DNA of 64,000 nucleotides from Candidatus Segetimicrobium genomatis (GCA_005882335.1 VBAP01000008.1:346-64345), one strand, 5' to 3'. Shown: positions 31,060 to 54,308, counted from the first letter of the stretch. The notes: a model not told the origin generated them from the letters alone. Translations and numbers: made by a program.

Positions 31060-31569
31060 CTACACCAGTCCTGGATTGATGCGGATGCCCGACAGATCCT
31101 CGTCAGCCATGGAGTCGTCGCCGGCGGCGGCCTGCGTCTCGCTGCCGTGAGGTCCGGAGGGCAGCTCCCCCCGGAGCGCTGCGCTCAGGTCGTCCAGGTA
31201 CCGCGCCACTGCCAGCCGCAGCATGCCTAGCTGCGAAGCCGCTCCGATGATCACGGCGACCACCGGACCCAGCGGCGCCATCACTACCGCACGACCGCCG
31301 TACACCACCATCACAACCTCGGGCGCGCCGAACGCGGCGCTCTCCCCCAGGCGTTCAGACACCATCACGCTGCTGGCCGCGTAGGCCGCCAGGGCATCGA
31401 GGTCGGTTTGGAGGTCGCCGATGGAGTGCAACACCACCCCATCACCGGAGAGCATCAGAACAGCCTGAGCCGCCGACTGCCGTCGGAGCTCCGTGAGCAC
31501 GGTCTGCACCTGCTCGTTGATCTGCTGTTCGTTGGTCACAGGAGTGTTGTACCCGCGCCGCGAGCCCAC
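31060..31569 (-). CDS. Roadblock/LC7 (MglB-like) domain protein
   Basis: 169 aa with the LMLSGDGVVLHSIG...AAYAASS pattern of Robl/LC7 domains. Confidence 0.6.
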   Translation of the reverse strand: MGSRRGYNTPVTNEQQINEQVQTVLTELRRQSAAQAVLMLSGDGVVLHSIGDLQTDLDALAAYAASSVMVSERLGESAAFGAPEVVMVVYGGRAVVMAPLGPVVAVIIGAASQLGMLRLAVARYLDDLSAALRGELPSGPHGSETQAAAGDDSMADEDLSGIRINPGLV

Positions 31570-31580
31570 TAGCCCGACCC

Positions 31581-32390
31581 TCAGGCCACCACCGTGGCGT
31601 CGGAATCCCCGCCGCCGGCGAGACGCGTTTCACCGTCCAGCCAGGACCGCAAGGCAAGGTGGGTGCGCAATGACTGCAGCGCTTCGCCGCGCATCTGGCT
31701 GATTCGAGACTCGGTCACGCGGAGCACGCGGCCGATCTCCCACAAGGTGAGTCCCTCGCAGTAGTACAGCCCGATCACGACCTTGTGGCGGACCGGCAGC
31801 GCTTCGATAGCGTGCCACAGTTCCGCATTGCGCGCCTGTTGCTCCATGCTCCCGACGACGTCGCCGCCGGCATCCCGCGCCAGTGCCTCGGGGAACCGGT
31901 CCGCGTCGCCGAACTCGTCCAGCGATAGAGGCAGCGCCGCGTGCTGATCGGTGCGGGCCCGGCCCAACTGGCGGGTCGCCAGCCCTGTCGCCTCCGCCAG
32001 CTCTTCATCGGTGGGCAGGCGGCCGAGCTGTCGCGTCAACGCGTGCACCTGCGCCTGCACCCGGTGCACGTTGCGCCGCGCGATCCGGGGCAGCAGGTCC
32101 AGCGTGCGCAGGTAGTCGTACATGGCGCCGCGGATCCGCAGACGGGCGAACACCTCAAACGGGATCCCGCGGTCGGGATCGAACCGGTCGATGGCTTCCA
32201 GGAGGCCGATCATTCCGTAGCCTTCCAGATCCTCGCTCTTTACCGTAGGAGGAACACGACTGGTCATCTGCCTGGTCTGTGCGCGTACGAGCGGGAGATA
32301 GGCCAATGCCAGGCGCTCGCGTACCGCAACGGCGTGGCCCTCCTTGAACACCCGCCACAAACTGGCTACCGACTGGGAATCCGCGGCCAT
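31581..32390 (-). CDS. fliA: RNA polymerase sigma factor, FliA/WhiG (sigma28) family
   Basis: 269 aa. Region 2 (DLEGYGMIGLLEAIDRFDPDRGIPFEVFARLRIRGAMYDYLR) and region 4 (LYYCEGLTLWEIGRVLRVTESRISQMRGEAL) are FliA-like. Confidence 0.8.
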   Translation of the reverse strand: MAADSQSVASLWRVFKEGHAVAVRERLALAYLPLVRAQTRQMTSRVPPTVKSEDLEGYGMIGLLEAIDRFDPDRGIPFEVFARLRIRGAMYDYLRTLDLLPRIARRNVHRVQAQVHALTRQLGRLPTDEELAEATGLATRQLGRARTDQHAALPLSLDEFGDADRFPEALARDAGGDVVGSMEQQARNAELWHAIEALPVRHKVVIGLYYCEGLTLWEIGRVLRVTESRISQMRGEALQSLRTHLALRSWLDGETRLAGGGDSDATVVA

Positions 32391-33659: not shown

Positions 33660-35027
33660 TTACGTCGTCTCCGCCAGCGGGCCTCGGGCCGTCGACGGCG
33701 GGATGTTCATCTCTTCCCGGTACTTCGAGACGGTGCGGCGCGCGATTTTCGTCCCTTCGGCCGTCAACAGGTGGGCAATCTGGTCATCGGTTAGCGGATC
33801 TGTCTCCGCGGCAATGAGCGCTCGAATACGCTCCTTCACCGGCAGCGATTGATCGAAGAAGATTTCGAAGCTCACCACGCGGCCGCTGGGCAACTGCGCG
33901 AACTTGGCGTCCAGCGCGCGACTGACTGTGGACTCGCTGATCCCGAGTTCCGCGGCGATCATCGCCTTGGTCAGCGGCTTCATGTGCGCCTCGCCGCGCT
34001 CGACGAACTCCCACTGTGTGCGCACAATCGTCTGCACGATGCTGGCGAACGTCCAGTTACGGCGGGCCAGGACCTCGATGAATAGCTTGGCACGGCCGAC
34101 GTAATCACGGACGTGATCGCGCGATTTGTCGGAATACCCGGATGCCGCGCGGCGCATCTGCCGGCGCAGGTCGTCATAAAAGGCGTTGACGCGGAGCGCG
34201 AACGCATCCCGCCGGCACAGCTCCACGGTGAAGCCCTCTTCGGTCTGGCGGATGATGATGTCAGGCCGCGCCACTTCGGCCGGGTGCACGCGACCGCCGT
34301 CCTGCTCGCTGCGGTATCGCTCGCCGGGATAGGGGTAGCAGTTGGCCTTGACGAACTCGTGCGCGTCTTTCACCTCGGCGATGGTGACCCCGAGGTCCTT
34401 CGCCACCTTCTCAAACCGCCGCGCGGCCAGGTCCGCCAGATGAGTCTCCACCAGACGCTGGGCCAGCCGGTTGGCGGGCGCCGGCTCCATCACCCGGAGT
34501 TGCAGCAGCAGACACTCTTCGACGTTGCGTGCGCCGACGCCGACGGGCTCGAAGCGCTGGATGCGCCCCAAGACCGCCTCGACCTCTTCGACCTCCGCGT
34601 TCATCTCCTGGGCCACCTGCACGGTGGTCGCTTCCACGTACCCGTTCTCGTTGATGTACCCGATGAGCCGCTCGCCGATGGCGTGGTCGCGAGCCGAGAG
34701 CCCCTGCGCCTGCAGTGTCATCATCAGGTGCTCCTGCAGCGACACCGGCGCCGCCATGCGGGAGAACGGATCGAACTCTTCGTCATCCGACGTCCAGGTC
34801 GCCAGTGACTGCCCGGATTCTTCACCCGACCAGTCGGGCTCCGGGGAGGACGGTATTTCATCCAGTTCCAACGCCGGGTTCTCAGCCAGTTCCTGCTCAA
34901 TGCGCGCCAGCAGCTGGTTGAGCGGCAGCACCAGGAGCGCATTGACCATCATCAGCTTGGGCACCATGCGCTGGTGCAGCTGCGGGTTGACGCCGACTGA
35001 GGTATGAATGCGCGGATCCATAGACAC
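33660..35027 (-). CDS. rpoN: RNA polymerase sigma54 factor
   Basis: 455 aa. It has the C-terminal RpoN box (ARRTVSKYREEMNIP), an HTH and an N-terminal Gln/Leu-rich region. Confidence 0.9.
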   Translation of the reverse strand: MSMDPRIHTSVGVNPQLHQRMVPKLMMVNALLVLPLNQLLARIEQELAENPALELDEIPSSPEPDWSGEESGQSLATWTSDDEEFDPFSRMAAPVSLQEHLMMTLQAQGLSARDHAIGERLIGYINENGYVEATTVQVAQEMNAEVEEVEAVLGRIQRFEPVGVGARNVEECLLLQLRVMEPAPANRLAQRLVETHLADLAARRFEKVAKDLGVTIAEVKDAHEFVKANCYPYPGERYRSEQDGGRVHPAEVARPDIIIRQTEEGFTVELCRRDAFALRVNAFYDDLRRQMRRAASGYSDKSRDHVRDYVGRAKLFIEVLARRNWTFASIVQTIVRTQWEFVERGEAHMKPLTKAMIAAELGISESTVSRALDAKFAQLPSGRVVSFEIFFDQSLPVKERIRALIAAETDPLTDDQIAHLLTAEGTKIARRTVSKYREEMNIPPSTARGPLAETT

Positions 35028-36746: not shown

Positions 36747-38111
36747 TCATCCGGTCTCCGCCGAAATGTTGTGCTCCTGGATTCTTGTTTGGAGGGCGGC
36801 ACGGTCGATTCCCAGGACCCGTGCGGCCTCGTCCAGGTTCCACGCGGTCATCTTCAGGACCGCGTGGATATGCCGGCGTTCGACTTCACCAAGCGAGAAC
36901 GCCTTCGGGAACTTCGCCCCCGGGGACGGCTGTTCGTCCAGCCAGATCTCCTCGGTGTCGATGAGTTCCCCGGTGGCCAGAATGACCACGCGCTGGACGG
37001 TGTACTCCAGCTCGCGGACGTTGCCCGGCCAGTGGTGGCTACGCAGTCTCTTCATCGCCGCCGGAGTGAAGCCTTTGATCCGCTTGCCGAACGCCACCGC
37101 GTACTTGTTCAGGAAGTGGTAGGCCAGCACGTGGATATCCTCTTTGCGATCGCGCAGCGCCGGCAACTCCAGCGGCATGACGGCCAGCCGGTAGTAGAGG
37201 TCCTCCCGGAACCGGCTGTCGCCGATCGCCTTCTTGAGATCTTTGTTGGTGGCTGCCACGACGCGGGCGTTGACATCGATGGGCTTGTTGCCGCCAACGC
37301 GCTCGATGACCCGCTCCTGGAGCACGCGCAGCAACTTCACCTGCATCGACAAGCTCATGTCGGCGATCTCATCCAGGAAGACCGTGCCGTCTTGGGCGCG
37401 CTCAAACCGGCCGACATGGCTGGTGATCGCGCTGGTGAATGCGCCCTTCTCGTGGCCGAAGAGTTCCGTCTCCAGCAGCGTCTCGGGGATCGCTCCGCAG
37501 TTCACCACCACAAACGGGCCGTTGGCGCGCGGGCTCTGGAAGTGGATGGAGCGGGCCAGCAACTCTTTACCGGTGCCCGTCTCCCCGTAGATCAGCACGG
37601 TGGCATCGGTCGGCGCGACGGCGGACGCCAGCCGCAACACGTCGCGCATCTTTGGAGATTCCCCGACGATCCCCTCGAACTTGAATGTCCGCATCAGTTC
37701 CTGTTGCAGCGCCCGGTTCTCTTGCATCAGGCGGCTGCGTTCCAGCGCCTGGTTCACTACAATCATCAACTCTTCAGGGCGGAAGGGCTTGCCGACATAA
37801 TGGTAAGCGCCAAGCTTGATGGCCTGGATGGCGGTGTCGATCGTCGAAAACGCGGTGATGATGATGACCAGCGCGTCGGGGTTGTGCTCCTTGATCGACC
37901 GCAGCACGCTCATGCCATCGAGCTTGGGCAGCTTGAGGTCGAGGAGCACGAGATCGTAGCGGCCGGCCTTGTACTTGGCCAGCCCTTCTTCGCCGTCGAC
38001 CGCGGTCTCGACCGCGTAGCCGTCTTCGCGAAGAATCCTGATCAGCAAATTCCGGAGGTTCTCCTCGTCGTCGACGACGAGGATGGACGTGCCATCGGTG
38101 ACCATCAGCAC
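36747..38111 (-). CDS. Sigma54-dependent transcriptional activator (NtrC/FleQ-like: REC, AAA+ and Fis HTH)
   Basis: 454 aa with [15 protein letters not shown] (Walker A), the GAFTSA-type sigma54 contact motif (GAFTSAIT) and a C-terminal HTH. Confidence 0.9.
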
Positions 38112-39125: not shown

Positions 39126-39281
39126 GACACCTCGGACGTCACCAGGAAGAAGCCAGTCTGTAATGAGGAGCAATTCCTGTGCCACGTGGGCAGAATGCCG
39201 GGGCCAAGGGACCGGGGGACCAAGGGACCACGCAGCCATGTCTGCCTGGTCCCTTGGCTGCCTGGTATCTGCTCCCGTTGT

Positions 39282-39307
39282 TCAAGTTTTGGGCATGATG
39301 CCGATAG
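39282..39307 (+). promoter_or_regulatory. Candidate sigma28 (FliA)-type promoter for peptide gene 1: TCAAGTTT-N10-GCCGATAG, against consensus TAAAGTTT-N11-GCCGATAA.
   Basis: Read directly from the sequence. Seven of eight positions match in each box. fliA is encoded 7 kb upstream. Confidence 0.45.
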
Positions 39308-39328: not shown

Positions 39329-39357
39329 TTGACAGCCTGTATGACCTGTGTTACTGT
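39329..39357 (+). promoter_or_regulatory. Alternative sigma70-like promoter, TTGACA-N17-TACTGT, upstream of peptide gene 1
   Basis: Perfect -35 with 17-nt spacing. The -10 matches three of six positions. Confidence 0.35.
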
Positions 39358-39471
39358 CAGCGAGCAATCTGTTCGGAGACCGGCTCACATCTCGATTCGG
39401 AAGGCCGCAGGCAACAGGTTCCTTGCCGGCGAGATGACGGGTCTATCCCAGCAGGAAGAGGGAGTCAATCA

Positions 39472-39618
39472 ATGCGCAAGGTGATCGCTGCATTCTTGTT
39501 CGGATTCCTGATGTTTGCTGCGGCGTCCGTATCGTGGGGCCAGACGGCCTCGACGGAGGCCACGTGGGAGTCGGCCACCTGGGAGACTCTTGACGCGGTC
39601 CCTGCAGTCTGGGAGTAG
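39472..39618 (+). CDS. Secreted 48-aa Trp-rich acidic peptide precursor (signal peptide plus a mature peptide of about 26 aa, WGQTASTEATWESATWETLDAVPAVWE)
   Basis: A strong SD (AGGGAG) lies 8 nt upstream. A near-identical paralogue sits 390 nt downstream. Its own terminator hairpin follows. The 169-aa ORF 39109-39618 in the track is an upstream GC artefact of this short gene. Confidence 0.7.
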   Translation: MRKVIAAFLFGFLMFAAASVSWGQTASTEATWESATWETLDAVPAVWE

Positions 39619-39652
39619 TTCCGGCCGTATCAGGACATCAGGACTGGTAGTG

Positions 39653-39690
39653 ACGAGGGGGTCCATCTGGACCCCCTCGTTGTGTTCCTC
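39653..39690 (+). terminator. Rho-independent-type terminator after peptide gene 1. It is a 12-13 bp perfect palindrome (CGAGGGGGTCCA / TGGACCCCCTCG) followed by a T-rich tail (TTGTGTT).
   Basis: Read directly from the sequence. Confidence 0.5.
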
Positions 39691-39801
39691 CCCGGCGCCC
39701 TGCCGGCGCATTCTCCCCATCTAGCCCACCCCTTCCGGGGGCATGACTTCGATAGGGTCCTGCTGGATTTTCCAAGAAAACTTGGTTAGAAAGTGTGGGC
39801 G

Positions 39802-39817
39802 TGGTACGAAAGTTGCT
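39802..39817 (+). promoter_or_regulatory. Sigma54 promoter (-24/-12), TGGTAC-N5-TTGCT, upstream of peptide gene 2
   Basis: Matches TGGCAC-N5-TTGCW with one mismatch. The GG-N10-GC spacing is exact. It lies about 45 nt upstream of the ATG at 39863. Confidence 0.6.
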
Positions 39818-39862
39818 CTATTTAAGGGTAGCAAAGACGTCCATCACACGGAGGGAACGACG

Positions 39863-40009
39863 ATGAGAAAGGTCCTGATTGCCGTCATGGTGATTCTGGC
39901 GGTGTGCGTGGGGACATCGGTATCGTGGGGCCAGACGGCCTCGACGGAAGCGACGTGGGAGTCGGCCACCTGGGAGACTCTTGACGCGGTCCCTTCAGTC
40001 TGGGAGTAG
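39863..40009 (+). CDS. Secreted 48-aa Trp-rich acidic peptide precursor, a paralogue of 39472-39618
   Basis: MRKVLIAVMVILAVCVGTSVSWGQTASTEATWESATWETLDAVPSVWE. The mature region is 25/26 identical to peptide 1 and the signal peptide is divergent. SD GGAGGG. Confidence 0.7.
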   Translation: MRKVLIAVMVILAVCVGTSVSWGQTASTEATWESATWETLDAVPSVWE

Positions 40010-40065
40010 CATGGCGCTCCGCCCGGTGGAGGATTCCACCTGGCGGTAGTCTAACTGCAGAGGTT

Positions 40066-40104
40066 GCCCGGGAGGCCGCCAGGGCAGTTGAGGCGGCCCC
40101 GGGC
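40066..40104 (+). terminator. GC-rich hairpin (GCCCGGGAGGCCGCC / GGCGGCCCCGGGC) between peptide gene 2 and the histidine kinase gene. It is a candidate terminator or attenuator.
   Basis: Read directly from the sequence. It is followed by CATTTGGCATCTGTT. Confidence 0.4.
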
Positions 40105-40130
40105 CATTTGGCATCTGTTGGGGCGGGGAT

Positions 40131-42425
40131 ATGAAGAACCTCTCGACGCCAGCCCGCGTCTACATCCTGGGGGTCATCATCGCCGGCGGCATCCTGGCGG
40201 CGATCCTGCCGCAGCTGCCGGGAGCCGCGCCGCGGCTGGATCTGCCGTTTGCCGTCTTCGTCGCCGCGGCACTCCTGACGCAGCTGGTCGGCGTCCGCGT
40301 GATCATGCCCGGCCGCGAGGGCATCGCCTGGTCGTTGATCAACGCAGTGATCGTGGCCACCGTCCTGCTCTTCCCTGCCGGCAACAGCATTCTTCTCGTC
40401 CTCATCACCTTCACCGCCTACGGATTCAAACGCCGTGAGCTGCCCTGGTATCAGGGCGCCTTCAACGTCGCGCAGCACGTGCTCTCGGTCAGCATCGCCG
40501 AGACGGTGTGGGCGATCGCGCGGCCGAGTAGCATTTCTGGGGCGATGGCGGTGCAGTGGTACGGCGCGGCGTTCTCCGCCGGTATGGTGTTCTACGTCGC
40601 CAACGGCGCCCTGGTCACCATGGCCATCACGCTGGTCGCCGGCAAACCGTTCGGGCAGGTCGGCGTTATCTCGCGGTCCAGCTTCTACCGCGAGATGGTC
40701 CTGATCTGGCTCGGCGCCGCCGTGGCCGACTTCTGGATCGTCAACCCGTGGCGCACGGTGCTGCTGACACTCCCGCTGGTTGGATTGTCGCAGATGCTGC
40801 GCCTGCAGATCGAGGACGCGGAGCGCATCCGCCGCAGCCAGCAAGAGGCCGAAGGCCGCGCCCAGCAACTGGCCAGCCTGAACGAACTGGCCCGGGCCCT
40901 GACCAGCAGCCTGGAGCTACAGCAAATCTACGAAGCGCTGTACGCGCAGGTGCGCACGATCGTCCCCGCTGACGCCTTTGGCGCCGGCGTGTACGAATCA
41001 CACTCCAATCTCATCCGGTTTGGCCTCTGGCGAACTGAGGATGAGACGTTCCCATCGTTTTCCAGGAATGCGTCCGAGCCGATCTTCCGGCGCGTCCTGC
41101 AGGCCCGGACGCCGCTGGCCCTGGAAGCGGGACCCGATCACGCGGAGATTGCGCAGCTCAGCCAGTATGGCCGGCTCCATCGCGATGCGATGGCCGTCGC
41201 GATCCCCATGACCGTCGGCGATCGAGCCGTCGGCATGATCATCGTCGGCACGCGCCGTGTCCTCACCTCGCAGGAGATGGACCTGCTCTCCACCATGGCC
41301 AGCCAGACGGCCGTGGCTGTGGAGAAGGCCCAACTCTTCGACAGGGAACGCCGGAAGAGCGCGCAGCTGGGTGCCATCACGCAGGTCTCCAAGAAGATCG
41401 TCACCATCCACAGCGTGGATGTCCTCCTGCAGCAGACATCGCGCCTCATCGAGGAGGCCTTCGACTTCGAGCGTGTGCAGCTGCTGCTGGCGGACGAAGC
41501 TGAAACGTCGCAGGCCGATCCCGCGGCGACCGGCATCCCCATCCTGTATCGCGGACAGTCGATCGGCGACCTGCGGGTGTGGCTGCGCCCGGGCACCGGT
41601 TTTTCTCCGGACGACCTGTCGATGCTGCAGACGCTGGCGGATGAGATCGCCGTGGCGATCGAGAATGCGCGCCTGTACGAGAACCTGCAGCGTCAGATGG
41701 CCATGCTGGAGCAAACACAGTTCCAGCTCATGCAGTCGGCCAAGCTGGCCACGATCGGCGAACTGGCGGCGTTCGTGGCGCACGAGATCAACAATCCCTT
41801 GACCAGCGTGCTGGGCTACGCCTCGCTGATCTTGAGCGAGACGCCGCCGGATGACGCCAAGCGCGGCGATCTGGAGGTCATTGAGAAGGAAGCGCTGCGG
41901 GCGCGCGCCATCGTGCGGGACCTGCTGGGCTATGCCCGGCAGACCGACTCCGCGATGGAACAGACCAGCATCAACGAGGCGATCGAGAGCGTCCTCCCGC
42001 TGATCCGCCGCCGCGCCGAGTCGCAGCGCGTCAACATCACGGCGAACCTCGATCCGTCGGTCCCCAAAATCATGGGTGACATCAACCAGCTCAAACAAGT
42101 CTTCATCAACATTCTGAACAATGCGATCGACGCCATGCCCGCCGGCGGCGCCGTGGATATCCGCACGCGTGAAGTCACCGGGAACGGAACCGGACCGCAG
42201 GTGGAAATCTCGTTCCAGGACAGCGGGGTAGGCATATCCGAGGACAAGCTGGAGCGCATCTTTGATCCCTTCTTCACGACCAAGGAAGACGGCAAAGGCA
42301 CCGGGCTCGGGCTGCCCATCAGCAAGCGCATCGTGGAACGCCACGGCGGGTCTATCGCGGTGAAGAGCATGCTTGGGGCGGGGACCCGGTTCACGGTGTG
42401 CATTCCAGTCGCGGTCACCTACTGA
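40131..42425 (+). CDS. Sensor histidine kinase with an N-terminal polytopic membrane domain, two GAF domains, HisKA and HATPase
   Basis: 764 aa with about seven TM helices in the first 230 aa. H-box ELAAFVAHEINNPLTSVLGYASLI, N/G boxes, and GLGLPISKRIVERHGGSIAV. Confidence 0.85.
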   Translation: MKNLSTPARVYILGVIIAGGILAAILPQLPGAAPRLDLPFAVFVAAALLTQLVGVRVIMPGREGIAWSLINAVIVATVLLFPAGNSILLVLITFTAYGFKRRELPWYQGAFNVAQHVLSVSIAETVWAIARPSSISGAMAVQWYGAAFSAGMVFYVANGALVTMAITLVAGKPFGQVGVISRSSFYREMVLIWLGAAVADFWIVNPWRTVLLTLPLVGLSQMLRLQIEDAERIRRSQQEAEGRAQQLASLNELARALTSSLELQQIYEALYAQVRTIVPADAFGAGVYESHSNLIRFGLWRTEDETFPSFSRNASEPIFRRVLQARTPLALEAGPDHAEIAQLSQYGRLHRDAMAVAIPMTVGDRAVGMIIVGTRRVLTSQEMDLLSTMASQTAVAVEKAQLFDRERRKSAQLGAITQVSKKIVTIHSVDVLLQQTSRLIEEAFDFERVQLLLADEAETSQADPAATGIPILYRGQSIGDLRVWLRPGTGFSPDDLSMLQTLADEIAVAIENARLYENLQRQMAMLEQTQFQLMQSAKLATIGELAAFVAHEINNPLTSVLGYASLILSETPPDDAKRGDLEVIEKEALRARAIVRDLLGYARQTDSAMEQTSINEAIESVLPLIRRRAESQRVNITANLDPSVPKIMGDINQLKQVFINILNNAIDAMPAGGAVDIRTREVTGNGTGPQVEISFQDSGVGISEDKLERIFDPFFTTKEDGKGTGLGLPISKRIVERHGGSIAVKSMLGAGTRFTVCIPVAVTY

Positions 42426-42832
42426 TGACCTCCATACAAACTGCCCAGCAGCCGCGCCCCGTGGCGGCCCGCGTCCTTGTGGTCGACGACGAAGAGTCGA
42501 TTCGCGACCTGTGCGCACGGGTGCTGAGCCGCGCCGGCTACACCGTGATTACCGCCCCCAGCGGCGAAGATGCCGTCGCCCTGCTGACCCGGGAGGCATT
42601 CGCCCTGGTTATCTCCGATATCCGCATGCCCGGCATCTCCGGCTTGGAGGTGCTGGAGCGTGCCAAGGCCACCTACCCGGAGATCCGGGTCGTGCTGATC
42701 ACCGGATTCGGCACCCCCCAGATGCTGACCCGAGCCCAGCAATCCGGCGCCGACCGCATCCTCACCAAACCCTTCAACCCGATGGAGCTCCTGGCGGCCG
42801 TCAGGGAAATCCTGCCACAGGACGGACGCTAG
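42425..42832 (+). CDS. Single-domain response regulator (CheY-like REC)
   Basis: VLVVDDEESIRDL...VISDIRMPGISGLEVL...TKPF. ATGA overlap with the kinase stop. Confidence 0.85.
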   Translation: MTSIQTAQQPRPVAARVLVVDDEESIRDLCARVLSRAGYTVITAPSGEDAVALLTREAFALVISDIRMPGISGLEVLERAKATYPEIRVVLITGFGTPQMLTRAQQSGADRILTKPFNPMELLAAVREILPQDGR

Positions 42833-42990: not shown

Positions 42991-43890
42991 GTGACCGCGA
43001 TCGCCGCCCTGAAGGCCTTTTTCTCCCACGAACGAGACGTCGCCGCCGTCTACCTGTATGGGAGATATGCCGACGAACGCACCTGGCCGGACAGCGACAT
43101 CGAGGTCGCCATATTGTTTTCGGACCGGGTCGGCGAAGATGAGGCCAGCAGTTACCTGGAACGCCTCTCCGCGGCCAACCCGCTGGCCGACGCTCCGGGG
43201 ATTCTGATGCCCTTCGCGCTGAACACCCACATCCTGCCGGTGATCCACGAGATCCTCAGCGGCGGGGATGTCCTCGTGGCGAATGATCCCGAAGCGACGG
43301 AGGCCTTTGCCAGATGGGCCGGTGCGCGGCTGGAGAACGAGCGAACGGCGTTGCTCGACGACGCCAAGGAGTCAATCCTGCAGGCCCGCAATCTCGGACT
43401 GGGGCTGCTCGGCAGCCCCGGGTTTGTGCTGCCGCAAACGCCGCGTCTTCTCGATCCGCTCCGCATCGGATGGCGCCTGGCCCGGATTCTAGGCTCCTCC
43501 GCAGTGATCGAGGCCTCCACCCGAGACAGCGAGGCAGCGGGGAGAGACCCCGAGTCGCTGGGCCAGTTGATCGGATGGTTCAGCAACGGGGCCGGCGCAG
43601 CGACCGGGATCGCGAAAGCCATGCTCAACATCATTGGTCTGCCGCGGCCCAGCCGTCGGTGGGAGGTCTTCCTGCCGCTGGCGGATGAAAAACTCGTGAC
43701 GATGGATCTGGCGCTGCAGCTGGGGGCCGCCGTGGAGGCCAGGTGGCAACTCCTCACCGGCAGCGGGCTGGCAGCGCCGGAGCGGATCGCCACCTCGATC
43801 CGAGCTTCGCTGCCGCCGATCCTGTCGTTTGCGCGTCTGGCGGCGTGGTACTGTGAAGTGCCGGGCGGGCGCGACCAGAAACTGCACTAA
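42991..43890 (+). CDS. Nucleotidyltransferase-domain protein (Pol-beta-like NTase N-terminus)
   Basis: GTG start. It has VYLYGRYADERTWPDSDIEVAILF, matching the GS-x-D-x-D NTase motif. Confidence 0.55.
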   Translation: MTAIAALKAFFSHERDVAAVYLYGRYADERTWPDSDIEVAILFSDRVGEDEASSYLERLSAANPLADAPGILMPFALNTHILPVIHEILSGGDVLVANDPEATEAFARWAGARLENERTALLDDAKESILQARNLGLGLLGSPGFVLPQTPRLLDPLRIGWRLARILGSSAVIEASTRDSEAAGRDPESLGQLIGWFSNGAGAATGIAKAMLNIIGLPRPSRRWEVFLPLADEKLVTMDLALQLGAAVEARWQLLTGSGLAAPERIATSIRASLPPILSFARLAAWYCEVPGGRDQKLH

Positions 43891-43990: not shown

Positions 43991-44371
43991 TTACAATCGC
44001 CCCGACTCCAGCAGCTTGGCCACCATCGCCGCCCTTGAGCCGACTCCCCACCGCGCGTAGATGCGGCGCAGGTGCGTACACACCGTCCAGACACTGATGG
44101 ATAGCGCCGCGGCGATGGCCTTGGTCGGCAGCCCCTGCGCCACGAGCGAGGCAATCTGTCGCTCCCGCGGGCTGAGTCCCGCGGCGGGTCCGGCCGGTCG
44201 TACCCGGGAGAGCACATAGCGCGCGCCGTCCAGGTCGATCTCGCACAGGACCTCCTCAAGCCGCCCGCTGTCGACGCGCACACGCATGGCGGCACTACCG
44301 GCCGCCTCACCCGCCACCGACCGCAGCAACGACTCGACGTCGTGTCCGTGCATCCCCTGGGCGGTCATGGC
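43991..44371 (-). CDS. LuxR-family HTH transcriptional regulator (short). The start is uncertain.
   Basis: C-terminal LuxR HTH (LSPRERQIASLVAQGLPTKAIAAALSISVWTVCTHLRRIYARWGV). ORF 43991-44569. Confidence 0.55.
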   Translation of the reverse strand, partial: AMTAQGMHGHDVESLLRSVAGEAAGSAAMRVRVDSGRLEEVLCEIDLDGARYVLSRVRPAGPAAGLSPRERQIASLVAQGLPTKAIAAALSISVWTVCTHLRRIYARWGVGSRAAMVAKLLESGRL

Positions 44372-45732
44372 GTGCGGCCTGCGGGCCAGGTGGTCGGGGG
44401 ACCCTGCGGCGCGAACGCCTGCGCAAACCAGTGGGCGGCCTGCTCGGGCTTCTCCAGGCGCATCCACAGGAAACCCAGATCGCGGCAAACCCGGACGACC
44501 TCGCCAGTCATTCCCAGTGCCTGGAACGCCACCGCCGCTTCCTCGTAGCGAACTGCAGCGTCGTCCCACTTACCGGCGGCACCAAGCGCGTCGGCCAGCG
44601 CCGCTTTGGCCCGAGCGACTTCGGCCTCATCATGAATACGCGCGGCCAGTGTGGCAGCGTCCTCCGCCGCACGCTGCGCGCCAACTGCGTCGCCGTCCCG
44701 GGCACGAAGTCGCGCGAGTTCCACGAGCGTCTGCGCCGTCCCCTCGTCGTCGCCGCTCTGGCCGGCCAGCCGCAGGCTGGTTTCCAGATCAGCCCGCGCC
44801 GCAGCCAGCGCGCCTCGTTCAAGATGGAGCATGCCCAGGCTGCGCTTCACCATACCCAGCAGCCGTACGTTCTCATGGATGGCGAACAACTCTGCCGCTT
44901 TCTGCAGCGACTCCCGCGCACGGTCAAAAGATTGCTGCCGCTCCCAGGCCACGCCCACGTTGAAGTACAGCAGGCCGAGGTGGAATGGATCAGCCGCGGC
45001 GACCAACGTCTCGGACGCCTCCCGGAAGTACTCCAACGCCTGGGCGGGCAGACCCAGTTCGACGAAGACGCGGCCAAGGTTGGCGAGCAACTTGCCGTAC
45101 GCTTCCGTGTGTTGCAGTCCTGAGGCGCGCAGTCGCCACAGCGCCTCCTGGAAGATTTCCTGTGCCTCCGAAAACCGGCGTTTGCGAAATGCCAGAAATC
45201 CCATCGCGTTGGCGGCCGCGGCGATCATCTCGGGATCGCCTGAGACGGCGGCCCGTGCCACGGCCGTGCTCAGATGCGCGTGGGCCTCTTCGAACCGGCG
45301 GAGGCCGGCCAGCGCCTGACCCGCGCCGAGTTCGCACCGCGCGTGATCGGCGGCATTCCGAGGCGTGGATACGGCGATGAACGCGTCCAACGCCTCGACG
45401 AAACGATGCTGGCGCAGGAGTGCCTCCGCATACTGCATGCGGAGCTGCGGCCCCGGCCCTTCGTCGAAAAACTGGCTGAGCGGCCTGCCCAGCCGCTCAG
45501 CCAGGATCCTCATCGTCGCAAGCGACGGACGCACCAGATCGTGCTCGACCATGCTGACAAAGCTGATCGAGCATGCCCCACTGGCCAACTCGCGCTGCGT
45601 CATTCCGCGCGATTGGCGCACCGTCCTGATTCGTTGCCCCAGGGTGGCAGCGCCCTTCACCGCCACCGCTGATCGCCGGCGCGTCCTACGTGAACGCATG
45701 CCGCCCTCCACGACGTCACGCGGCAAGCCCAA
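44365..45732 (-). CDS. XRE-family HTH plus TPR-repeat transcriptional regulator
   Basis: N-terminal HTH_XRE (LGQRIRTVRQSRGMTQRELASGACSISFVSMVEHD), followed by about 350 aa of TPR-like repeats. Confidence 0.75.
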   Translation of the reverse strand: MGLPRDVVEGGMRSRRTRRRSAVAVKGAATLGQRIRTVRQSRGMTQRELASGACSISFVSMVEHDLVRPSLATMRILAERLGRPLSQFFDEGPGPQLRMQYAEALLRQHRFVEALDAFIAVSTPRNAADHARCELGAGQALAGLRRFEEAHAHLSTAVARAAVSGDPEMIAAAANAMGFLAFRKRRFSEAQEIFQEALWRLRASGLQHTEAYGKLLANLGRVFVELGLPAQALEYFREASETLVAAADPFHLGLLYFNVGVAWERQQSFDRARESLQKAAELFAIHENVRLLGMVKRSLGMLHLERGALAAARADLETSLRLAGQSGDDEGTAQTLVELARLRARDGDAVGAQRAAEDAATLAARIHDEAEVARAKAALADALGAAGKWDDAAVRYEEAAVAFQALGMTGEVVRVCRDLGFLWMRLEKPEQAAHWFAQAFAPQGPPTTWPAGRTP

Positions 45733-45740
45733 CCGATGGG

Positions 45741-45869
45741 CTAGAGGAGTTCGCCTCCTCCGTGTCCCGCGACCCTAACACGCGCCGCCGCCGACTCCGC
45801 GAACAATCCGGCAGGCTGCGCCGCGAGCAGGATCACCGCCAACAGCACCACTGCCCCGACCTTCCTCAT
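45741..45869 (-). CDS. Candidate small ORF (42 aa, MRKVGAVVLLAVILLAAQPAGLFAESAAARVRVAGHGGGELL) immediately upstream of the XRE-TPR regulator
   Basis: Strong SD (AAAGGAGG) 7 nt upstream. Signal-peptide-like N-terminus. It ends 9 nt before the regulator ATG. Confidence 0.3.
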   Translation of the reverse strand: MRKVGAVVLLAVILLAAQPAGLFAESAAARVRVAGHGGGELL

Positions 45870-47127: not shown

Positions 47128-47997
47128 TCATGAGCCGAGGACACTCATCCTCGGGTCCAGCGCATCGCGCAAGCCGTCGCCGACCAGATTGAACGCCATC
47201 ACGACGAGAAAGATGGCCAGACCCGGAAACGTCGCGATGAACCAGTAGGAGAGCAGGTAGGTTTGGCCTTCGCCGAGCATCGTCCCCCACTCCGGGGTCG
47301 GTGGCTTCACGCCCAGGCCAAGGAACCCCAACCCGGCGGCGGTCAGGATCGCCACGCCCAGTTGCAGCGTCGACTGCACGATGACCGGCGTCAGGCAGTT
47401 GGGGAGGACGTGGCGAACGATGATGGCCGCATCGCCCGCGCCCAGCGCTTTTGCGGCCTCGACATATGCCTGCTCCCGGATCGAGAGCGTCGCACCCCGG
47501 ACCAGACGGATGTACACCGGCATCGCCGCCGCAGCCACCGACACCACCACGTTGGTCACACCCACACCCAGCACCGCGATGAGGGTGAGCGCAAGCAGGA
47601 ATCCTGGAAAGGCGAGCAGCAGATCCACCCCGCGCTGCACGAGCAGATCCAAGGTGCCCCCGACATACCCCGAGATGACCCCCACGGGAATCCCCGCGGC
47701 GAGCGCCAGCGCGACGGCCAGGGCGCCAATAAGAAAGGAAATTCGGCCGCCATAGGCCACGCGGGTCAACAAATCGCGGCCGAGCTGGTCGGTCCCCAGG
47801 AGGTGCTCGAGCGATGGGGGTTGCAGGACACCGGCGAAGTCAACCTCGTTGGGATCACCCATGAGCAGCGGCGCGGCCAGCGAGGCGGCGAGCAACAACC
47901 CGAGGATGATCAGGCCGGCCGCAGCAGTCTTGCGCCGTTGCAGGCGTTCCCAGGCGGAACGCCCCACGGAAGGGGTACCCCTGACCCCCTCACTCAT
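47128..47997 (-). CDS. Peptide/nickel ABC transporter permease (DppC/OppC-like)
   Basis: Six TM segments and the EAA-like loop (EQAYVEAAKALGAG). Confidence 0.85.
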   Translation of the reverse strand: MSEGVRGTPSVGRSAWERLQRRKTAAAGLIILGLLLAASLAAPLLMGDPNEVDFAGVLQPPSLEHLLGTDQLGRDLLTRVAYGGRISFLIGALAVALALAAGIPVGVISGYVGGTLDLLVQRGVDLLLAFPGFLLALTLIAVLGVGVTNVVVSVAAAAMPVYIRLVRGATLSIREQAYVEAAKALGAGDAAIIVRHVLPNCLTPVIVQSTLQLGVAILTAAGLGFLGLGVKPPTPEWGTMLGEGQTYLLSYWFIATFPGLAIFLVVMAFNLVGDGLRDALDPRMSVLGS

Positions 47998-48922
47998 ACC
48001 GGATGCGCGGGTCGATGGTGACATACAGCAGGTCTGTGACCAGGTTGACCACGACGAACATGGCGGCAAAGACGATCACGATGCCCTGGATGACCGGGTA
48101 GTCCCGCGCGGTGATGGCCGAGACCAACAGCCGTCCGAGCCCCGGCCACGCGAACGTCGTCTCGGTCAACACCGCGCCACCCAACAGCGTGCCAAACTGC
48201 AGCCCTACAACGGTGATCACCGGAATCAACGCGTTGCGCAGGGCGTGGCGGATGATCACGGTCCACTCTCCCATCCCCTTTGCCCGGGCGGTGCGAACAA
48301 AGTCCAGCCCCAGCGTCTCCAGAAGACTCCCGCGGGTCATGCGGGCGACGATCGCCGTGGAGAAGGCCGCCAGGGTCAACGCCGGCAAGACGAGGTGGGC
48401 CGGCGTCCCGATCCCGCCGGCCGGCAGCCAGTGCAGGTGCACCGCGAACAGCAGCATGAGCATGATGCCCAGCCAGAAGACCGGTACGGACACCCCGCCC
48501 AGCGCCACCACCATCACGGAGTAGTCCACCGCTGTGTTGTGGTAGGTGGCCGCCAGCACACCGGCACTCACCCCGGCCGCGACGGCGATCGCTGTGCTGG
48601 TCACCGCGAGCATCATGGTGGCCCGCATGCGAATGCCGATCTCCACGATCACCGGGGTGCGGGTCACCGCCGAAAGCCCGAAATCGCCCGAGAGGACGCC
48701 GGCCAGGAACCGGACATACTGCTCCGGCAGCGGGCGGTCCAGACCCAGTTCGATCCGCAGCCGCTGTACCTCTTCGTCAGACGCCAGCAGGCCCGCGATG
48801 ATCCGCCCGGGATCGCCGGGAATCAGGCGCACCAGCAGGAAGACTGCCAGGGTGACCCCCAGCAGTGTGGGAAGTGCGTATAACACCCGCCGCAGGACAT
48901 AGCGGCCCAGGGGAGCGCGCAT
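47990..48922 (-). CDS. Peptide/nickel ABC transporter permease (DppB/OppB-like)
   Basis: 310 aa starting MRAPLGRYVLRRVLYALPTLLGVTLAVFLL, with the EAA motif region. Confidence 0.85.
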   Translation of the reverse strand: MRAPLGRYVLRRVLYALPTLLGVTLAVFLLVRLIPGDPGRIIAGLLASDEEVQRLRIELGLDRPLPEQYVRFLAGVLSGDFGLSAVTRTPVIVEIGIRMRATMMLAVTSTAIAVAAGVSAGVLAATYHNTAVDYSVMVVALGGVSVPVFWLGIMLMLLFAVHLHWLPAGGIGTPAHLVLPALTLAAFSTAIVARMTRGSLLETLGLDFVRTARAKGMGEWTVIIRHALRNALIPVITVVGLQFGTLLGGAVLTETTFAWPGLGRLLVSAITARDYPVIQGIVIVFAAMFVVVNLVTDLLYVTIDPRIRYE

Positions 48923-49054
48923 TAGAAGGGGATTGCTTCGCGGAAACCCCCGCGTGCCGTGTGGAGTTCCGCTCGCAATGGCCCGCCGCTAGTCAACCTC
49001 GCGATCGGAGGGGATCGCTTCGCTCCGCTCGCGATAACCCGCGCTGCGCGCGGG

Positions 49055-50614
49055 TTACTTCCACGTCGCGTAGATCGCGTCCCACTTCTCAATGGGCGTG
49101 ATGGAGACGCCCTCCAGGTTCTTCACCGTCGCCACGTACCAATTCTGCGCCCACAGGAAGATCCACGGGGCGTCGTTCCAGATCTGTTCCTGGGCGTCGC
49201 GGTACAGCGTCTTCCGCTTTTCCACATCCACCGTGGTACGGGCTTCGTCCAGCCAGGTATCCACCTGCGTGTTCGCATAGAATGCCGGGGCCAGCCCGCG
49301 CGGTGGGTGTTGGGAGGAGTGGAACTGGCCGAAGAGGACCCCGTCGCAGTCGAGCACCACCCATGCCCACCCCAGCACGAACATCTGCAGCCGGGTGCGA
49401 TCCGGCGGCGCGGTGATCTCGGCAACGTAGCTGGGCCATTCCATCGTGCTGACCGATGCACGAATACCCACATTGCGCAGCTGTGCGGCCACGGCCTGCG
49501 CGAACTGGAAGTCCTGGATGTAGCGGCCGGTTGGGGTAAAGAAGTTGATCTCGAAGCCATTGGGATAGCCCGCCTCGACCAGCAACTGTTTGGCCTTGAT
49601 CGGATTGAACGGCCACCCGCCCGCCTGCACCGGACCGTGTCCGAACATCCCGGCCGGACAGGGTGAGTCCACCACCGTGCCCAGGTCAAACAGGACACTG
49701 TTGAGGATGGCCCGCTTGTTGATCGCGTAGTTGAACGCCTGCCTGACGCGCGTGTCGCGGAGCGGTCCCCACTGGGTGTTCAACCCGATGAAGATGACGC
49801 GGTCGGTCGGCGCCTGCACCAATGTGACAGTGGGATTCTGCCGGAGCCGGCGGACATCTGGGGCAGGCGGGAGCATGACCATGTGCACGTCGCCGGCCAG
49901 GAGCATCGTTTCGCGCGTCCCGGCATCGGGTACCACTCGGAACATGACCTCGTCAAAGACCGGAGCCTTGCCCCAGTAACTCGGGGAACGGGTCACCAGA
50001 ATGTGCGTACCGCGCACCCACTCTTTGAACGCGTACGGCCCGGTCCCAGCCCCGGTCGCGTCGCGCACCAGATTCGCAGCGCCAATTTTCTGCGCCGCAA
50101 CCGGCGAGATGATCGCGGTGGTGGTGTAGGTCAGGTTGCTGAGGAACGTCGGGCTGGGCTTGCTCAGCTGAAAGCGCACGGTGGACGCGTCGAGCACCTG
50201 CACCTCTTTGATCGCATCCACCAGGAAGCGCAACGGCACCCGCGTCTTGAGATCCAGCAGCCGGTCAAACGTAAACTTCACCGCCTCGGCGTCAAACGGG
50301 GTGCCATCCTGGAACGTCACGCCCTCCCGGAGCCGGAACAGGTAGGTCAGCCCGTCCCGGCTGACCGTCCAGCTCGTGGCCAACTGGGGCGCCACCTTGC
50401 CGGCGGCGTAGTCGGCGCGCACCAGCGTCTCATAGACATAATCCACCATATTGGCCACGGTCGTCGTCGTCTGACCGGCGGGATCCAGGGTGTCGGCGTC
50501 GATCCCTACGGCGATCCGCAGCGTCTTGGGTGGACCCTGCGCCTGCACCGCCGCCCCGGTCGCCGCCATCAGCGCCGCGACGATCAGCAGCGCGCCCGCA
50601 CGCATCTGTCCCAT
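49055..50614 (-). CDS. ABC transporter substrate-binding protein, family 5 (peptide/nickel). The start was trimmed to MGQMRAG.
   Basis: Signal peptide, SD AGGAG upstream, and an SBP_bac_5-like body. Confidence 0.85.
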   Translation of the reverse strand: MGQMRAGALLIVAALMAATGAAVQAQGPPKTLRIAVGIDADTLDPAGQTTTTVANMVDYVYETLVRADYAAGKVAPQLATSWTVSRDGLTYLFRLREGVTFQDGTPFDAEAVKFTFDRLLDLKTRVPLRFLVDAIKEVQVLDASTVRFQLSKPSPTFLSNLTYTTTAIISPVAAQKIGAANLVRDATGAGTGPYAFKEWVRGTHILVTRSPSYWGKAPVFDEVMFRVVPDAGTRETMLLAGDVHMVMLPPAPDVRRLRQNPTVTLVQAPTDRVIFIGLNTQWGPLRDTRVRQAFNYAINKRAILNSVLFDLGTVVDSPCPAGMFGHGPVQAGGWPFNPIKAKQLLVEAGYPNGFEINFFTPTGRYIQDFQFAQAVAAQLRNVGIRASVSTMEWPSYVAEITAPPDRTRLQMFVLGWAWVVLDCDGVLFGQFHSSQHPPRGLAPAFYANTQVDTWLDEARTTVDVEKRKTLYRDAQEQIWNDAPWIFLWAQNWYVATVKNLEGVSITPIEKWDAIYATWK

Positions 50615-50650
50615 GTTGCGCGTCCCTCCTTGCGCGGCACGTGCGCGAGA

Positions 50651-50858
50651 TTGGTGATTCGTGATTCGAAAACCATCATGGTGTGAAGCGATGCTGGGAC
50701 GTATCACAAAATCACGAATCACGCCCTGCTTTGATACGGGACTCCCGGCACCCATACCTGCCGCCCCCCAGAAAACGCACGAGATCCGGGAACTGGGATC
50801 CGAGTGAGCAGGCACCTGCCGTCTCGGATCCCTGATCCCGGATCCCGTATCCCGCGGG
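50651..50858. repeat. Two hairpin elements in one spacer. (TGATTCG)n / (CGAATCA)n lies at 50651-50725. A nested palindrome, GGGATCCGAG-GCAGGCACCTGC-CTCGGATCCC, followed by a (GATCCC)n tail, lies at 50783-50858.
   Basis: Read directly from the sequence. Spacer between the SBP gene and the STAS gene. Confidence 0.65.
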
Positions 50859-50863
50859 AGGCT

Positions 50864-51214
50864 TTACTGAAACTGCTGCAGTGCGTCGTCCAGAGTCCGG
50901 TGCAACGGAACGGTCTGGTCGACCTGTGTCAGCAACAGGACGCGGCGAATCACCGAGCGCTCGGGCACCACCAGGGCCAGCTGCTGCTGACTGACGCGCA
51001 GGCGTTCAGCCAGCTCCAGGATGAGGTGGACGCCGCGGCTGTCCAGATACGTCGTCTGCGACAGATCCACCACCAGGCCTGGCGCGGTGTTGGGGACGAC
51101 CGCGATGAGCTGGGCCCGGCAATCCGCTACATTGGCCAGGTCGATCTCGCCCTCGGGTGCGGCAATCGGCACGCCGCCCCGCTCTATGACCTTGACCATC
51201 GCCGTCACAGTCAT
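50864..51214 (-). CDS. STAS-domain anti-sigma-factor antagonist (SpoIIAA/RsbV-like)
   Basis: 116 aa with LDSRGVHLILEL, which has a phosphorylatable Ser context. Confidence 0.75.
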   Translation of the reverse strand: MTVTAMVKVIERGGVPIAAPEGEIDLANVADCRAQLIAVVPNTAPGLVVDLSQTTYLDSRGVHLILELAERLRVSQQQLALVVPERSVIRRVLLLTQVDQTVPLHRTLDDALQQFQ

Positions 51215-53304: not shown

Positions 53305-54308
53305 GAGCGTGCCAGCGGTATCTGGATCACGAAGGTGGCACCCTCTCCTGGTGGGCTGATGGCCTCGATGGTGCCCTGATGGTCTTTGATGATTCCGTAC
53401 GCAATGGAGAGGCCCAATCCGGTTCCGTGACCGACGTCTTTGGTCGTGAAGAACGGGTCGAAGATCCGCTGTTCCAGTCCCGGGGGAATACCCGGGCCGG
53501 TGTCGCTGATGGCCATCTCCAGCCGGTCGTCGTTGATCGCGCTGCGGATACGGAGCACCTTTACCGGCGCGTCCTGCAGCGCATCCCGGGCGTTGGCGAG
53601 GATATTCATGAACACTTGCTCCAGCTGAATGGGACTGCCCGTGACCACCGGGTTGGCGGGACTGAGATCGAGCTCCACGGAGATCTCCCGCAGCCGCAAC
53701 TGCTCGCTGATCAGCGACAGCGCCCGCAGCACGACCTCGTTGATGGCCACATCCTCGTAGCCGACCGGGGCGAGGCGGCCGAAGGTACGCAGGTGCGAGA
53801 TGATCTCTGAGGCCTTGCGGACCTGCAGCACTGCCGCGTTGAGATCGGCCAGCACGTGCCCCTTGTCCTCCCGGCCCAACTCGACGAGGTCGATGACGTT
53901 GCCAAGGAATAACCCAATGTTGTTGAGGGGGTTGTTCAGCTCGTGCGCGATGCCGGTCGTGAGTTCACCCAGCGTGGCCAGCTTGCCCGCCTGCACCAGC
54001 TGTTCCTGCTTGTCGCGCAGCTCCCGCTCGCGCCGGGTGATCTCCTCCGTAGTTTTGCGCAGGTCGTCCATGATGTGGATCATCGCCTTCCGCGCATTCT
54101 CCAGCTTGAGGTTGGACTGGTGCTGGTCCTGGAGGATGTGCAGGAGGGCGCGGCGGTGGTCTTCGCGCAGGCGCAGCCGCTCATCGAGCGCCTCCACCTG
54201 CTCGCGCAGCCGCGCGTTCTTCAGGAGCAGCTCGGCTTCGCGCGCCGTCGCCATGGAGCCGGCGACCCGCCCCGCCCCGCCAGGCGACGCTGCCTGTGCG
54301 GTGGACAT
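53301..54308 (-). CDS. Cytoplasmic histidine kinase (coiled-coil, HisKA and HATPase)
   Basis: H-box ELTTGIAHELNNPLNNI, and G-box GLGLSIAYGIIKDHQGTI. Confidence 0.85.
   Translation of the reverse strand: MSTAQAASPGGAGRVAGSMATAREAELLLKNARLREQVEALDERLRLREDHRRALLHILQDQHQSNLKLENARKAMIHIMDDLRKTTEEITRRERELRDKQEQLVQAGKLATLGELTTGIAHELNNPLNNIGLFLGNVIDLVELGREDKGHVLADLNAAVLQVRKASEIISHLRTFGRLAPVGYEDVAINEVVLRALSLISEQLRLREISVELDLSPANPVVTGSPIQLEQVFMNILANARDALQDAPVKVLRIRSAINDDRLEMAISDTGPGIPPGLEQRIFDPFFTTKDVGHGTGLGLSIAYGIIKDHQGTIEAISPPGEGATFVIQIPLARS

Follow-up and report, generated by a model that had tools for sequence, protein, structure and literature searches.

What purpose do two nearly identical small peptides serve beside a membrane-bound sensor kinase? 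The question is raised by a 64,000-nucleotide stretch of DNA from Candidatus Segetimicrobium genomatis (GCA_005882335.1, VBAP01000008.1:346-64345; hereafter the window), in which two tandem genes, here called A and B, each encode a tryptophan-rich peptide of 48 amino acids immediately upstream of the genes for a sensor histidine kinase and a CheY-like response regulator. An initial annotation, made from the sequence of the window, proposed that the peptides are secreted and sensed by the adjacent two-component system. We find that the peptides belong to an undescribed family of uncultured soil bacteria, that peptide and kinase co-occur strictly, and that the first gene copy and the later copies are preceded by different promoter classes, an arrangement that is conserved. 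We give even odds to the proposal that the exported peptide, as part of a sigma-54 feedback loop, acts on the kinase encoded next to it. The well-characterised cases of signalling by peptides through membrane kinases come mainly from Firmicutes, and almost nothing is known of such signalling elsewhere and in uncultured phyla. The locus offers a compact and testable candidate: a synthesisable peptide of 27 residues, one kinase, one sigma-54 reporter promoter, and a set of natural variants with which to address specificity.

The downstream neighbours had been described as a membrane kinase with two GAF domains and a CheY-like regulator, and the domain assignments agree with this description: GAF, HisKA and HATPase_c domains are recognised in the kinase, and the next gene encodes a receiver domain only (Table 1). 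In all loci that were found by way of the peptides and contain enough sequence, an orthologous kinase gene and then a gene for a receiver-only regulator follow downstream. Across these peptide-first loci the kinase has 648-766 residues, about eight membrane helices, one or two GAF domains, and HisKA and HATPase_c domains. To remove the ascertainment bias of loci collected in this manner, the metagenome collection was also searched with an alignment of the membrane domain of the kinase. This kinase-first scan returned 24 loci, 22 of them with upstream DNA, and at least one member of the peptide family lies directly upstream of the kinase gene in each of the 22, so that the synteny of peptide, kinase and regulator expected in related genomes is indeed observed. 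Two or three copies are present in 19 of these loci, a single divergent copy (SMAWG...SGVTWE) in L043 and L044, and a single truncated copy in L041 (related loci are designated by L numbers throughout).

The core of the kinase is closest to those of AtoS and ZraS; its score against the PrsK model, 103 bits, falls below the cut-off of 300. Between close relatives, sensor differences cluster between residues 118 and 164, a region that contains the predicted outer loop 129-138; variability is highest from transmembrane helix 5 through outer loop 3 to transmembrane helix 6. The most variable predicted outer loop shows 4.9 distinct residues per column, compared to about 2.6 elsewhere. The linker and tail of the peptide also change faster between close relatives than does the kinase (about 5 of 27 residues versus 7 of 232), and the changes are parallel in both peptide copies. 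An AlphaFold2 model of the sensor domain was unusable, with a predicted local distance difference test score (pLDDT) of 46, and sequence searches for homologues of the sensor yielded few matches, in uninformative contexts.

The strictness of the linkage bears on the main rival to sensing by the kinase, which holds that the peptides are an output, that is, a secreted effector or structural product (matrix, surface-coating, metal-binding or antagonistic) that is controlled by a sigma-54/cyclic di-GMP module and is not itself sensed. We regard this as possible, though on the whole unlikely. The neighbouring GGDEF, HD-GYP, rpoN and FliA/WhiG genes share sigma-54 promoters, and the multiple gene copies, strong ribosome-binding sites and terminators suggest high production; in Synechococcus, tandem small secreted proteins are reported to serve biofilm formation (PMC9260433). 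Co-regulation, however, does not require strict adjacency to one sensor domain, which is retained at about 56% kinase identity whereas other neighbours vary. Furthermore, a mature length confined to about 24-28 residues, together with invariant motifs, suggests a specific partner, and genes for immunity, export or assembly are absent from the locus.

Genes A and B are genuine coding genes under purifying selection on the mature part of their products. The two tandem open reading frames (ORFs) of 48 codons plus a stop lie where the initial annotation had placed them, public gene callers predict both on the same contig, and each has, as was also claimed, a strong Shine-Dalgarno sequence (GAGGGAG and GGAGGGA, respectively, 7-8 nucleotides 5' of the ATG). 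A longer ORF of 169 amino acids, in which gene A is extended upstream, does mask the short gene. L011 interrupts this longer frame with a stop 11 codons before the ATG, so that it is not conserved, and the upstream part coincides with promoter and leader elements that are. Spurious long ORFs of this kind may hide such small genes in annotation pipelines. A direct repeat of 93 nucleotides (39526-39618 and 39917-40009, 96% identity) spans the region from the S-V-S-W-G codons to the TAG stop, and three of the four nucleotide differences between its copies are synonymous; in the signal-peptide parts, by comparison, 27 of 54 nucleotides differ. Near-identity of the mature peptides and divergence of the signal peptides, on which the argument for selection had been built, are both borne out. 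Between paralogs, synonymous changes far outnumber non-synonymous ones from SVSWG to the stop (5/0 in L001, 7/2 in L010, 10/3 in L017 and 14/5 in L024), whereas in the signal part the ratio is inverted (about 3 synonymous versus 13 non-synonymous). Equal numbers of the two kinds of change, which the initial annotation would have counted against a selected peptide, are not seen in the mature part. Among 16 gene copies from nine loci, pairwise substitutions in the mature part are most frequent at the third codon position (1432), followed by the first (726) and the second (424), and the invariant S, V, S, G, A, T and E columns of SVSWG and ATWE(S/T)ATWE are encoded by various synonymous codons (TCC/TCG/TCT/TCA, GTA/GTG/GTC, GGC/GGA/GGT, GCC/GCG/GCA, ACG/ACA/ACC and GAG/GAA).

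These substitution patterns make it scarcely credible that the ORFs are cis-acting leader or attenuator ORFs that would control the kinase operon through their Trp codons, or chance ORFs over a DNA repeat. The abundance of Trp codons, the downstream hairpins and the position of gene B directly before the kinase gene would all be compatible with attenuation, but amino acid identity is selected well beyond the Trp codons, nothing downstream is regulated by gene A, which has a terminator of its own, all of the at least 36 variants retain a signal peptide, and the genes that follow are unrelated to Trp metabolism.

Selection and gene conversion together explain why the mature parts are identical. 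That gene conversion acts is seen from changes specific to a lineage (QVAPE, an extra S, TATWE, SVTWE, GGTWE), which are present in all copies of one genome. In L007 (6001-6147) there is a single hybrid peptide gene with an A-type signal peptide and promoter and a B-type 3' flank, evidently a natural one-copy variant that arose by deletion through recombination between the two 93-nucleotide repeats. In another single-copy lineage, L025 (~905-1085), the stretch that separates the peptide terminator from the kinase gene still contains a sigma-54 promoter, and an apparent decayed second peptide ORF (VKKRMPRSCWRCGLFAL and a stop) lies 3' of this promoter.

Homology searches with both peptides, which the initial annotation had recommended, recovered a family that appears to be undescribed. 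A word-based search yielded 15 clusters and a profile search of 1.8 billion representative proteins yielded 21 matches, all members being 45-54 amino acids long with the exception of a few over-extended gene calls. The sources are metagenome-assembled genomes and metagenome contigs, one of them explicitly from a sediment metagenome; two source genomes are titled 'Bacillati bacterium ANGP1' and 'Armatimonadetes bacterium 13_1_40CM_64_14'. In the family layout, an M-(K/R)-K start leads into a hydrophobic core and then the invariant S-V-S-W-G junction; beyond a short linker of variable sequence come between one and four xxTWE units (SATWE, TATWE, SVTWE, GATWE, GGTWE) and a short tail that ends in ..(T/V)WE, the C-terminal ..TWE being retained even in the most divergent member. 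Between one and three tandem copies are found per genome. In the loci retrieved there are 36 different mature sequences; they range from 23 to 33 residues in length (24-28 in most cases) and contain 2-5 Trp and 3-6 acidic residues but hardly any basic ones. The earlier statement that the peptides fit no described family stands: peptides A and B have no Pfam match at E <= 0.01; A, B, P0034 and P0035 have no NCBIfam match at E <= 1, P0043 and P0028 giving chance-level signal-peptide matches only; and a literature search for the motifs found nothing relevant to them.

With respect to export, the length of the precursors and their n-h-c layout are compatible with a Sec-exported pro-peptide of about 40-60 amino acids, the hydrophobic core of about 15 residues being followed by S-V-S, which reads as a small-x-small signature. 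Consistent with the initial annotation, which had noted neither a PEP-CTERM motif nor a GG leader, the peptides have no C-terminal transmembrane segment or PEP motif; their N-terminus is of a putative Sec type. The pre-peptides of A and B are therefore best described as probable Sec substrates, cut by signal peptidase after S-V-S, and the peptide that such a cleavage would release is acidic and Trp-rich, 24-33 residues long and of the form WG - linker - (xxTWE)n - tail - ..WE. Because the mature length is nearly constant, the whole mature peptide, rather than released pentapeptides, is the likely functional unit. In a structure model of the peptide the signal helix is the sole confident part. 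Two other descriptions were considered and discarded, namely that of a lipoprotein, as the Cys of the B-type signal peptide is not conserved, and that of a symmetric Trp-zipper hairpin for the mature peptide, as the Trp spacing differs across variants.

If the hydrophobic N-terminal segment remained uncleaved, each product would span the membrane once and would modulate the kinase from there, as the small proteins MgrB and SafA do. Their size of 45-54 amino acids, their location next to a kinase and their induction by the same regulatory module would fit that class, and the invariant SVSWG could represent a membrane-surface interface motif and not a cleavage site. We nevertheless consider such an anchored form improbable: a core of about 15 residues followed by S-V-S looks typical of cleaved signals, and the paralogs have unrelated hydrophobic segments, a surprising finding for parts supposed to touch the helices of the kinase.

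The two genes differ in their transcription signals. The initial annotation had given each gene its own promoter; both do have one, but the classes differ, gene A having a sigma-70-like promoter accompanied by a FliA/WhiG-like motif and gene B a sigma-54 promoter. A scan for strict consensus promoters and terminators gave no match, as its thresholds miss TAnnnT -10 elements and short U-tracts, and comparative motif analysis was used instead. The motif TTGACA-N16-18-TAnnnT is found 77-146 nucleotides upstream of the first peptide gene in every locus with enough upstream sequence. In 18 of the 19 multi-copy kinase-first loci, copy 1 has this motif and no sigma-54 motif, the exception being L034, in which too little upstream sequence is available; every non-first copy in all 19 has a sigma-54 motif 58-87 nucleotides upstream and no sigma-70-like motif. 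The sigma-54 motif, TGG(C/T)A(C/T)-N5-TTGC, occurs six times in the window compared to 0.33 times in shuffled sequences, and two to four times per related locus compared to an expected 0.16-0.4, with sites at orthologous positions before gene B, the FlgN-like operon, the HD-GYP/rpoN operon and the GGDEF/FliA operon. Paralogous small genes with an identical product but wholly different promoters represent a clean case of regulatory sub-functionalisation.

The FliA/WhiG (sigma-28)-like motif upstream of gene A is conserved in the SATWE and TATWE clades, where L028 has TAAAGTTT-N10-GCCGATAG; the SVTWE clade and L025 keep only the -10 element, and the motif is absent from the GGTWE clade. We judge it equally balanced whether this motif would function as a second promoter of gene A or otherwise, the alternative being a regulator-binding site. 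Imperfect repeats at 39203-39266 are situated between the divergent FlgN-like sigma-54 promoter and the gene A promoters; these inverted and direct repeats, which contain GACCAAGGGACC, were rejected as a conserved activator site, being absent from other lineages.

The transcript of gene A may also contain a new cis-regulatory RNA in its 5' leader. The structure of this leader (an outer stem AGACC/GGUCU, an inner stem CAUCUCG/CGAGAUG, a distal stem, and a UCCC/GGGA pairing over the Shine-Dalgarno sequence) has 24 pairs, two of which show compensatory changes. A covariance model of the leader has a single match in the window and also detects L017 and L019, both of which were outside the set used to build it. 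The leader is shortened in L021, L024 and L025, and GGUCUAUC is kept in all lineages. An Rfam search of the 38-41 kb region at E <= 1 produced chance microRNA matches only and none to the leader.

At the 3' side, the proposal that each gene forms its own transcription unit with a downstream hairpin holds for gene A and not for gene B. The terminator-like hairpin of gene A is conserved in L010-L012, L017 and L021, with changed stems (compensatory changes) and T-runs. Gene B has no clear terminator: the hairpins that follow it lack a U-tract, and the energy of their folding does not reach significance (z = -1.4). The gap between gene B and the kinase gene measures 72-123 nucleotides (72-73 in L021 and L024). 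Since it lacks a clear terminator and the gap is short, gene B is probably the first gene of an operon that continues with the kinase and the regulator; on this arrangement the hairpins in the spacer would form a possible attenuator and read-through would be likely.

The mechanism that we favour starts from these arrangements. The exported peptide would be a ligand or an envelope-side modulator of the adjacent eight-helix kinase, which would signal to the CheY-like regulator and presumably also to an NtrC-type activator encoded divergently. The activator, together with sigma-54, would drive gene B, probably the kinase-regulator operon behind it, and the neighbouring operons for rpoN, the GGDEF and HD-GYP enzymes and the FliA/WhiG factor, thereby closing a feedback loop. 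Copy A would deliver the same peptide in response to a different input, by way of the sigma-70-like promoter and, in this clade, the FliA/WhiG-like promoter, and its leader would mask the ribosome-binding site and so gate translation. In this chain of events we infer the export, the cleavage site, the role of the kinase as receptor, its link to the activator and the sign of the feedback. Beyond synteny, the proposal is supported by the resemblance of the kinase core and the activator to the cognate AtoS/AtoC- and ZraS/ZraR-type pairs, by the very short outer loops of the sensor, by the clustering of sensor differences around its most variable predicted outer loop, and by the faster change of the peptide linker and tail relative to the kinase.

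Several considerations weigh against this mechanism. Co-location fits equally well with a kinase that merely regulates the peptide genes, and the two cytoplasmic GAF domains could carry the real input of the kinase. Dedicated genes for processing or export (C39 ABC transporter, AgrB, ComQ) are absent within 10 kb on either side, and the structure models of the kinase sensor and of the peptide gave nothing usable. The cleavage between SVS and WG, the read-through from gene B into the kinase gene and the pairing of kinase and activator are likewise putative. If an outer membrane is present, a peptide of 3 kDa would stay periplasmic and would be a private feedback factor, not a cell-to-cell signal. 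A broader proposal, which we consider unlikely, is that the locus defines a new class of bacterial peptide signalling in an uncultivated soil lineage, in which a Sec-exported xxTWE-repeat precursor acts as a cell-to-cell autoinducer on a dedicated eight-helix kinase within an NtrC/sigma-54 positive loop. If this were true, housekeeping and FliA/WhiG sigma factors would control one copy, a new structured leader RNA would gate it and, in the boldest version, cuts after Glu would release several identical pentapeptide signals from each precursor.

The presence of a cytoplasmic peptide-receptor type of regulator in the window calls for consideration of another route, similar to that of RRNPP systems, in which the pro-peptide would be cut to a short C-terminal xxTWE peptide, re-imported by Opp and bound by the HTH-TPR regulator encoded at 44365-45732 (- strand). 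Phr- and PapR-type precursors match the present ones in pro-peptide size of about 48 amino acids and in the Sec-type signal predicted here. The retention of C-terminal ..TWE in the most divergent member and the location of both the HTH_3+TPR regulator and the opp genes within the window agree with such a route, and in Streptococcus suis the TPR regulator ComR recognises a Trp-rich acidic pheromone, WGTWVEE (PMC5131902). The TPR regulator, however, is 4.3 kb distant and has its own adjacent 42-amino-acid signal-peptide ORF, and it is missing from the L010-L012 loci, which retain both peptides and the kinase; for these two reasons we place this route, improbable overall, below the output function discussed above. 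In addition, the constraint on total mature length points to a functional whole peptide, and opp genes are common and not specific.

Comparison with known systems reveals partial similarities. As in the AgrD-AgrC, ComC-ComD and ComX-ComP systems of Firmicutes, a small precursor gene adjoins the gene for a polytopic helix-bundle kinase with short loops, the peptides occur as lineage-specific variants, and there is apparent self-induction, suggested here by the sigma-54 motif before gene B. Those systems differ in employing a GG leader or AgrB- or ComQ-type processing where a Sec-type signal is predicted here, an HPK10 kinase in place of a HisKA-type core with GAF domains, and LytTR or NarL-type regulators in place of a CheY-like protein and an NtrC-type sigma-54 activator; the one to three tandem copies with different promoter classes set the present locus further apart. 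In ZraP-ZraSR and CpxP-CpxAR an exported product is under the control of its own system, an arrangement with which the conserved sigma-54 motif of the present locus would be compatible; ZraP is sigma-54-dependent through the NtrC-family regulator ZraR, and the nearest types to the present kinase and activator are AtoS/ZraS and AtoC/ZraR, respectively. ZraP and CpxP, by contrast, are folded periplasmic proteins of about 140 residues that belong to a defined family, unlike the repeat peptides of 24-33 residues described here, and peptides A and B have no Pfam match that would indicate CpxP/Spy/ZraP homology. The RRNPP systems (Phr, PapR, NprX, and ComS/XIP such as WGTWVEE) have a Sec precursor of 40-60 residues with a conserved C-terminus, as is predicted for the present peptides, and some XIPs are Trp-rich and acidic (PMC5131902), but in those systems a cognate TPR receptor is adjacent, whereas here it is always a membrane kinase and the whole mature length is constrained. 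PrsK/PrsR provide a precedent for pairing a polytopic GAF kinase with an NtrC-type activator, and the activator scores 443 bits against the PrsR model; the scores remain below the family cut-offs, a PEP-CTERM signal is absent from the peptides, and no exosortase was seen. Thus, the locus resembles Agr/Com circuits and ZraP/CpxP feedback, and membership fails on processing machinery, on kinase and regulator class, and on fold. The peptide family and the promoter architecture are new; a signalling role would follow if the favoured mechanism is correct.

Table 1. Features of the peptide-kinase locus and of its conserved neighbours (positions counted from the first nucleotide of the window)
Feature	Position	Strand	Description
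FliA/WhiG-family sigma factor	31581..32390	-	TIGR02479, 212.8 bits (cut-off 189.6)
rpoN (sigma-54)	33660..35027	-	conserved synteny
NtrC-family sigma-54 activator	36747..38111	-	receiver, AAA+, HTH_8
Sigma-54 promoter (predicted), divergent FlgN-like/FlaG-like operon	39170..39184	-	orthologous position in L001, L009, L010, L017
FliA/WhiG (sigma-28)-like motif, gene A	39282..39307	+	TCAAGTTT-N10-GCCGATAG
Sigma-70-like promoter, gene A	39329..39357	+	TTGACA, 17-nucleotide spacer, TACTGT
Structured 5' leader (predicted), gene A	39359..39471	+	~113 nucleotides, nested stems, UCCC/GGGA pairing over the Shine-Dalgarno sequence
Peptide gene A, 48 amino acids	39472..39618	+	predicted signal peptide MRKVIAAFLFGFLMFAAASVS, then WGQTASTEATWESATWETLDAVPAVWE
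Intrinsic-terminator-like hairpin, gene A	39653..39680	+	13-bp perfect stem, then TTGTGTT; z = -2.7
Sigma-54 promoter (predicted), gene B	39802..39816	+	TGGTAC-N5-TTGC, then TCTATTT
Peptide gene B, 48 amino acids	39863..40009	+	predicted signal peptide MRKVLIAVMVILAVCVGTSVS, then WGQTASTEATWESATWETLDAVPSVWE
Gene B-kinase spacer	40010..40130	+	two conserved GC-rich hairpins, no U-tract
Sensor histidine kinase	40131..42425	+	~8 transmembrane helices, very short outer loops, two GAF, HisKA, HATPase_c
Receiver-only (CheY-like) response regulator	42425..42832	+	start overlaps the kinase stop codon

On the opposite strand, the conserved neighbours comprise the NtrC-type activator, an RR-GAF-HD-GYP protein, rpoN, a GAF-GGDEF protein and the FliA/WhiG sigma factor. 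The activator is found beside the peptides in every locus with an upstream flank long enough to read; it is closest to AtoC, PrsR, NtrC and ZraR, with all scores below the cut-offs (for PrsR, 443 versus 502.6 bits). Sigma-54 motifs (TGGCAC-N5-TTGCTC) on the - strand form a chain at 30818, 33497, 36605 and 39184, with a further one at 12012. The location of this chain before leftward operons that include rpoN and the FliA/WhiG gene suggests a self-reinforcing cascade of sigma factors. Directly downstream of the FliA/WhiG gene lies a gene for a Roadblock/LC7 (MglB-like) protein (31060-31569, - strand), an arrangement that is conserved in L001 and L002.

The flagellar setting of the initial annotation, which had the peptide genes beside flaG and a flgN-like gene, did not hold up. 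The FlgN match is below the Pfam threshold (28.3 versus 30.5 bits), the FlaG match is marginal (27.1 versus 23.8 bits; NCBIfam E = 0.02), L021-L024 (the GGTWE lineages) lack both genes, and no structural flagellar genes were found among the larger ORFs of the window that were scanned. As the two matches are weak and not conserved, the flagellar framing should be dropped.

Downstream of the response regulator, a gene for a Pol-beta-type nucleotidyltransferase of 299 amino acids with a weak MntA-like match (42991-43890, + strand) occupies the next position in all lineages, in either orientation. Farther along, an ORF of 42 amino acids with a signal-peptide-like N-terminus (MRKVGAVVLLAVILLAAQPAGLFAESAAARVRVAGHGGGELL; 45741-45869, - strand) ends 9 nucleotides before the HTH_3+TPR regulator gene, which is itself followed by a GerE/LuxR-type HTH gene (~43991-44401, - strand). 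A small gene is called at the position of the 42-amino-acid ORF in several distant loci. This ORF, the HTH-TPR gene and the opp genes (47128-50815) look like a separate peptide-receptor cassette of RRNPP style. A separate signalling cluster at 51211-55657 (- strand) encodes a triple-PAS protein, a HisKA/HATPase kinase and an RR-GAF-SpoIIE-HATPase_c_2 protein of the partner-switching type.

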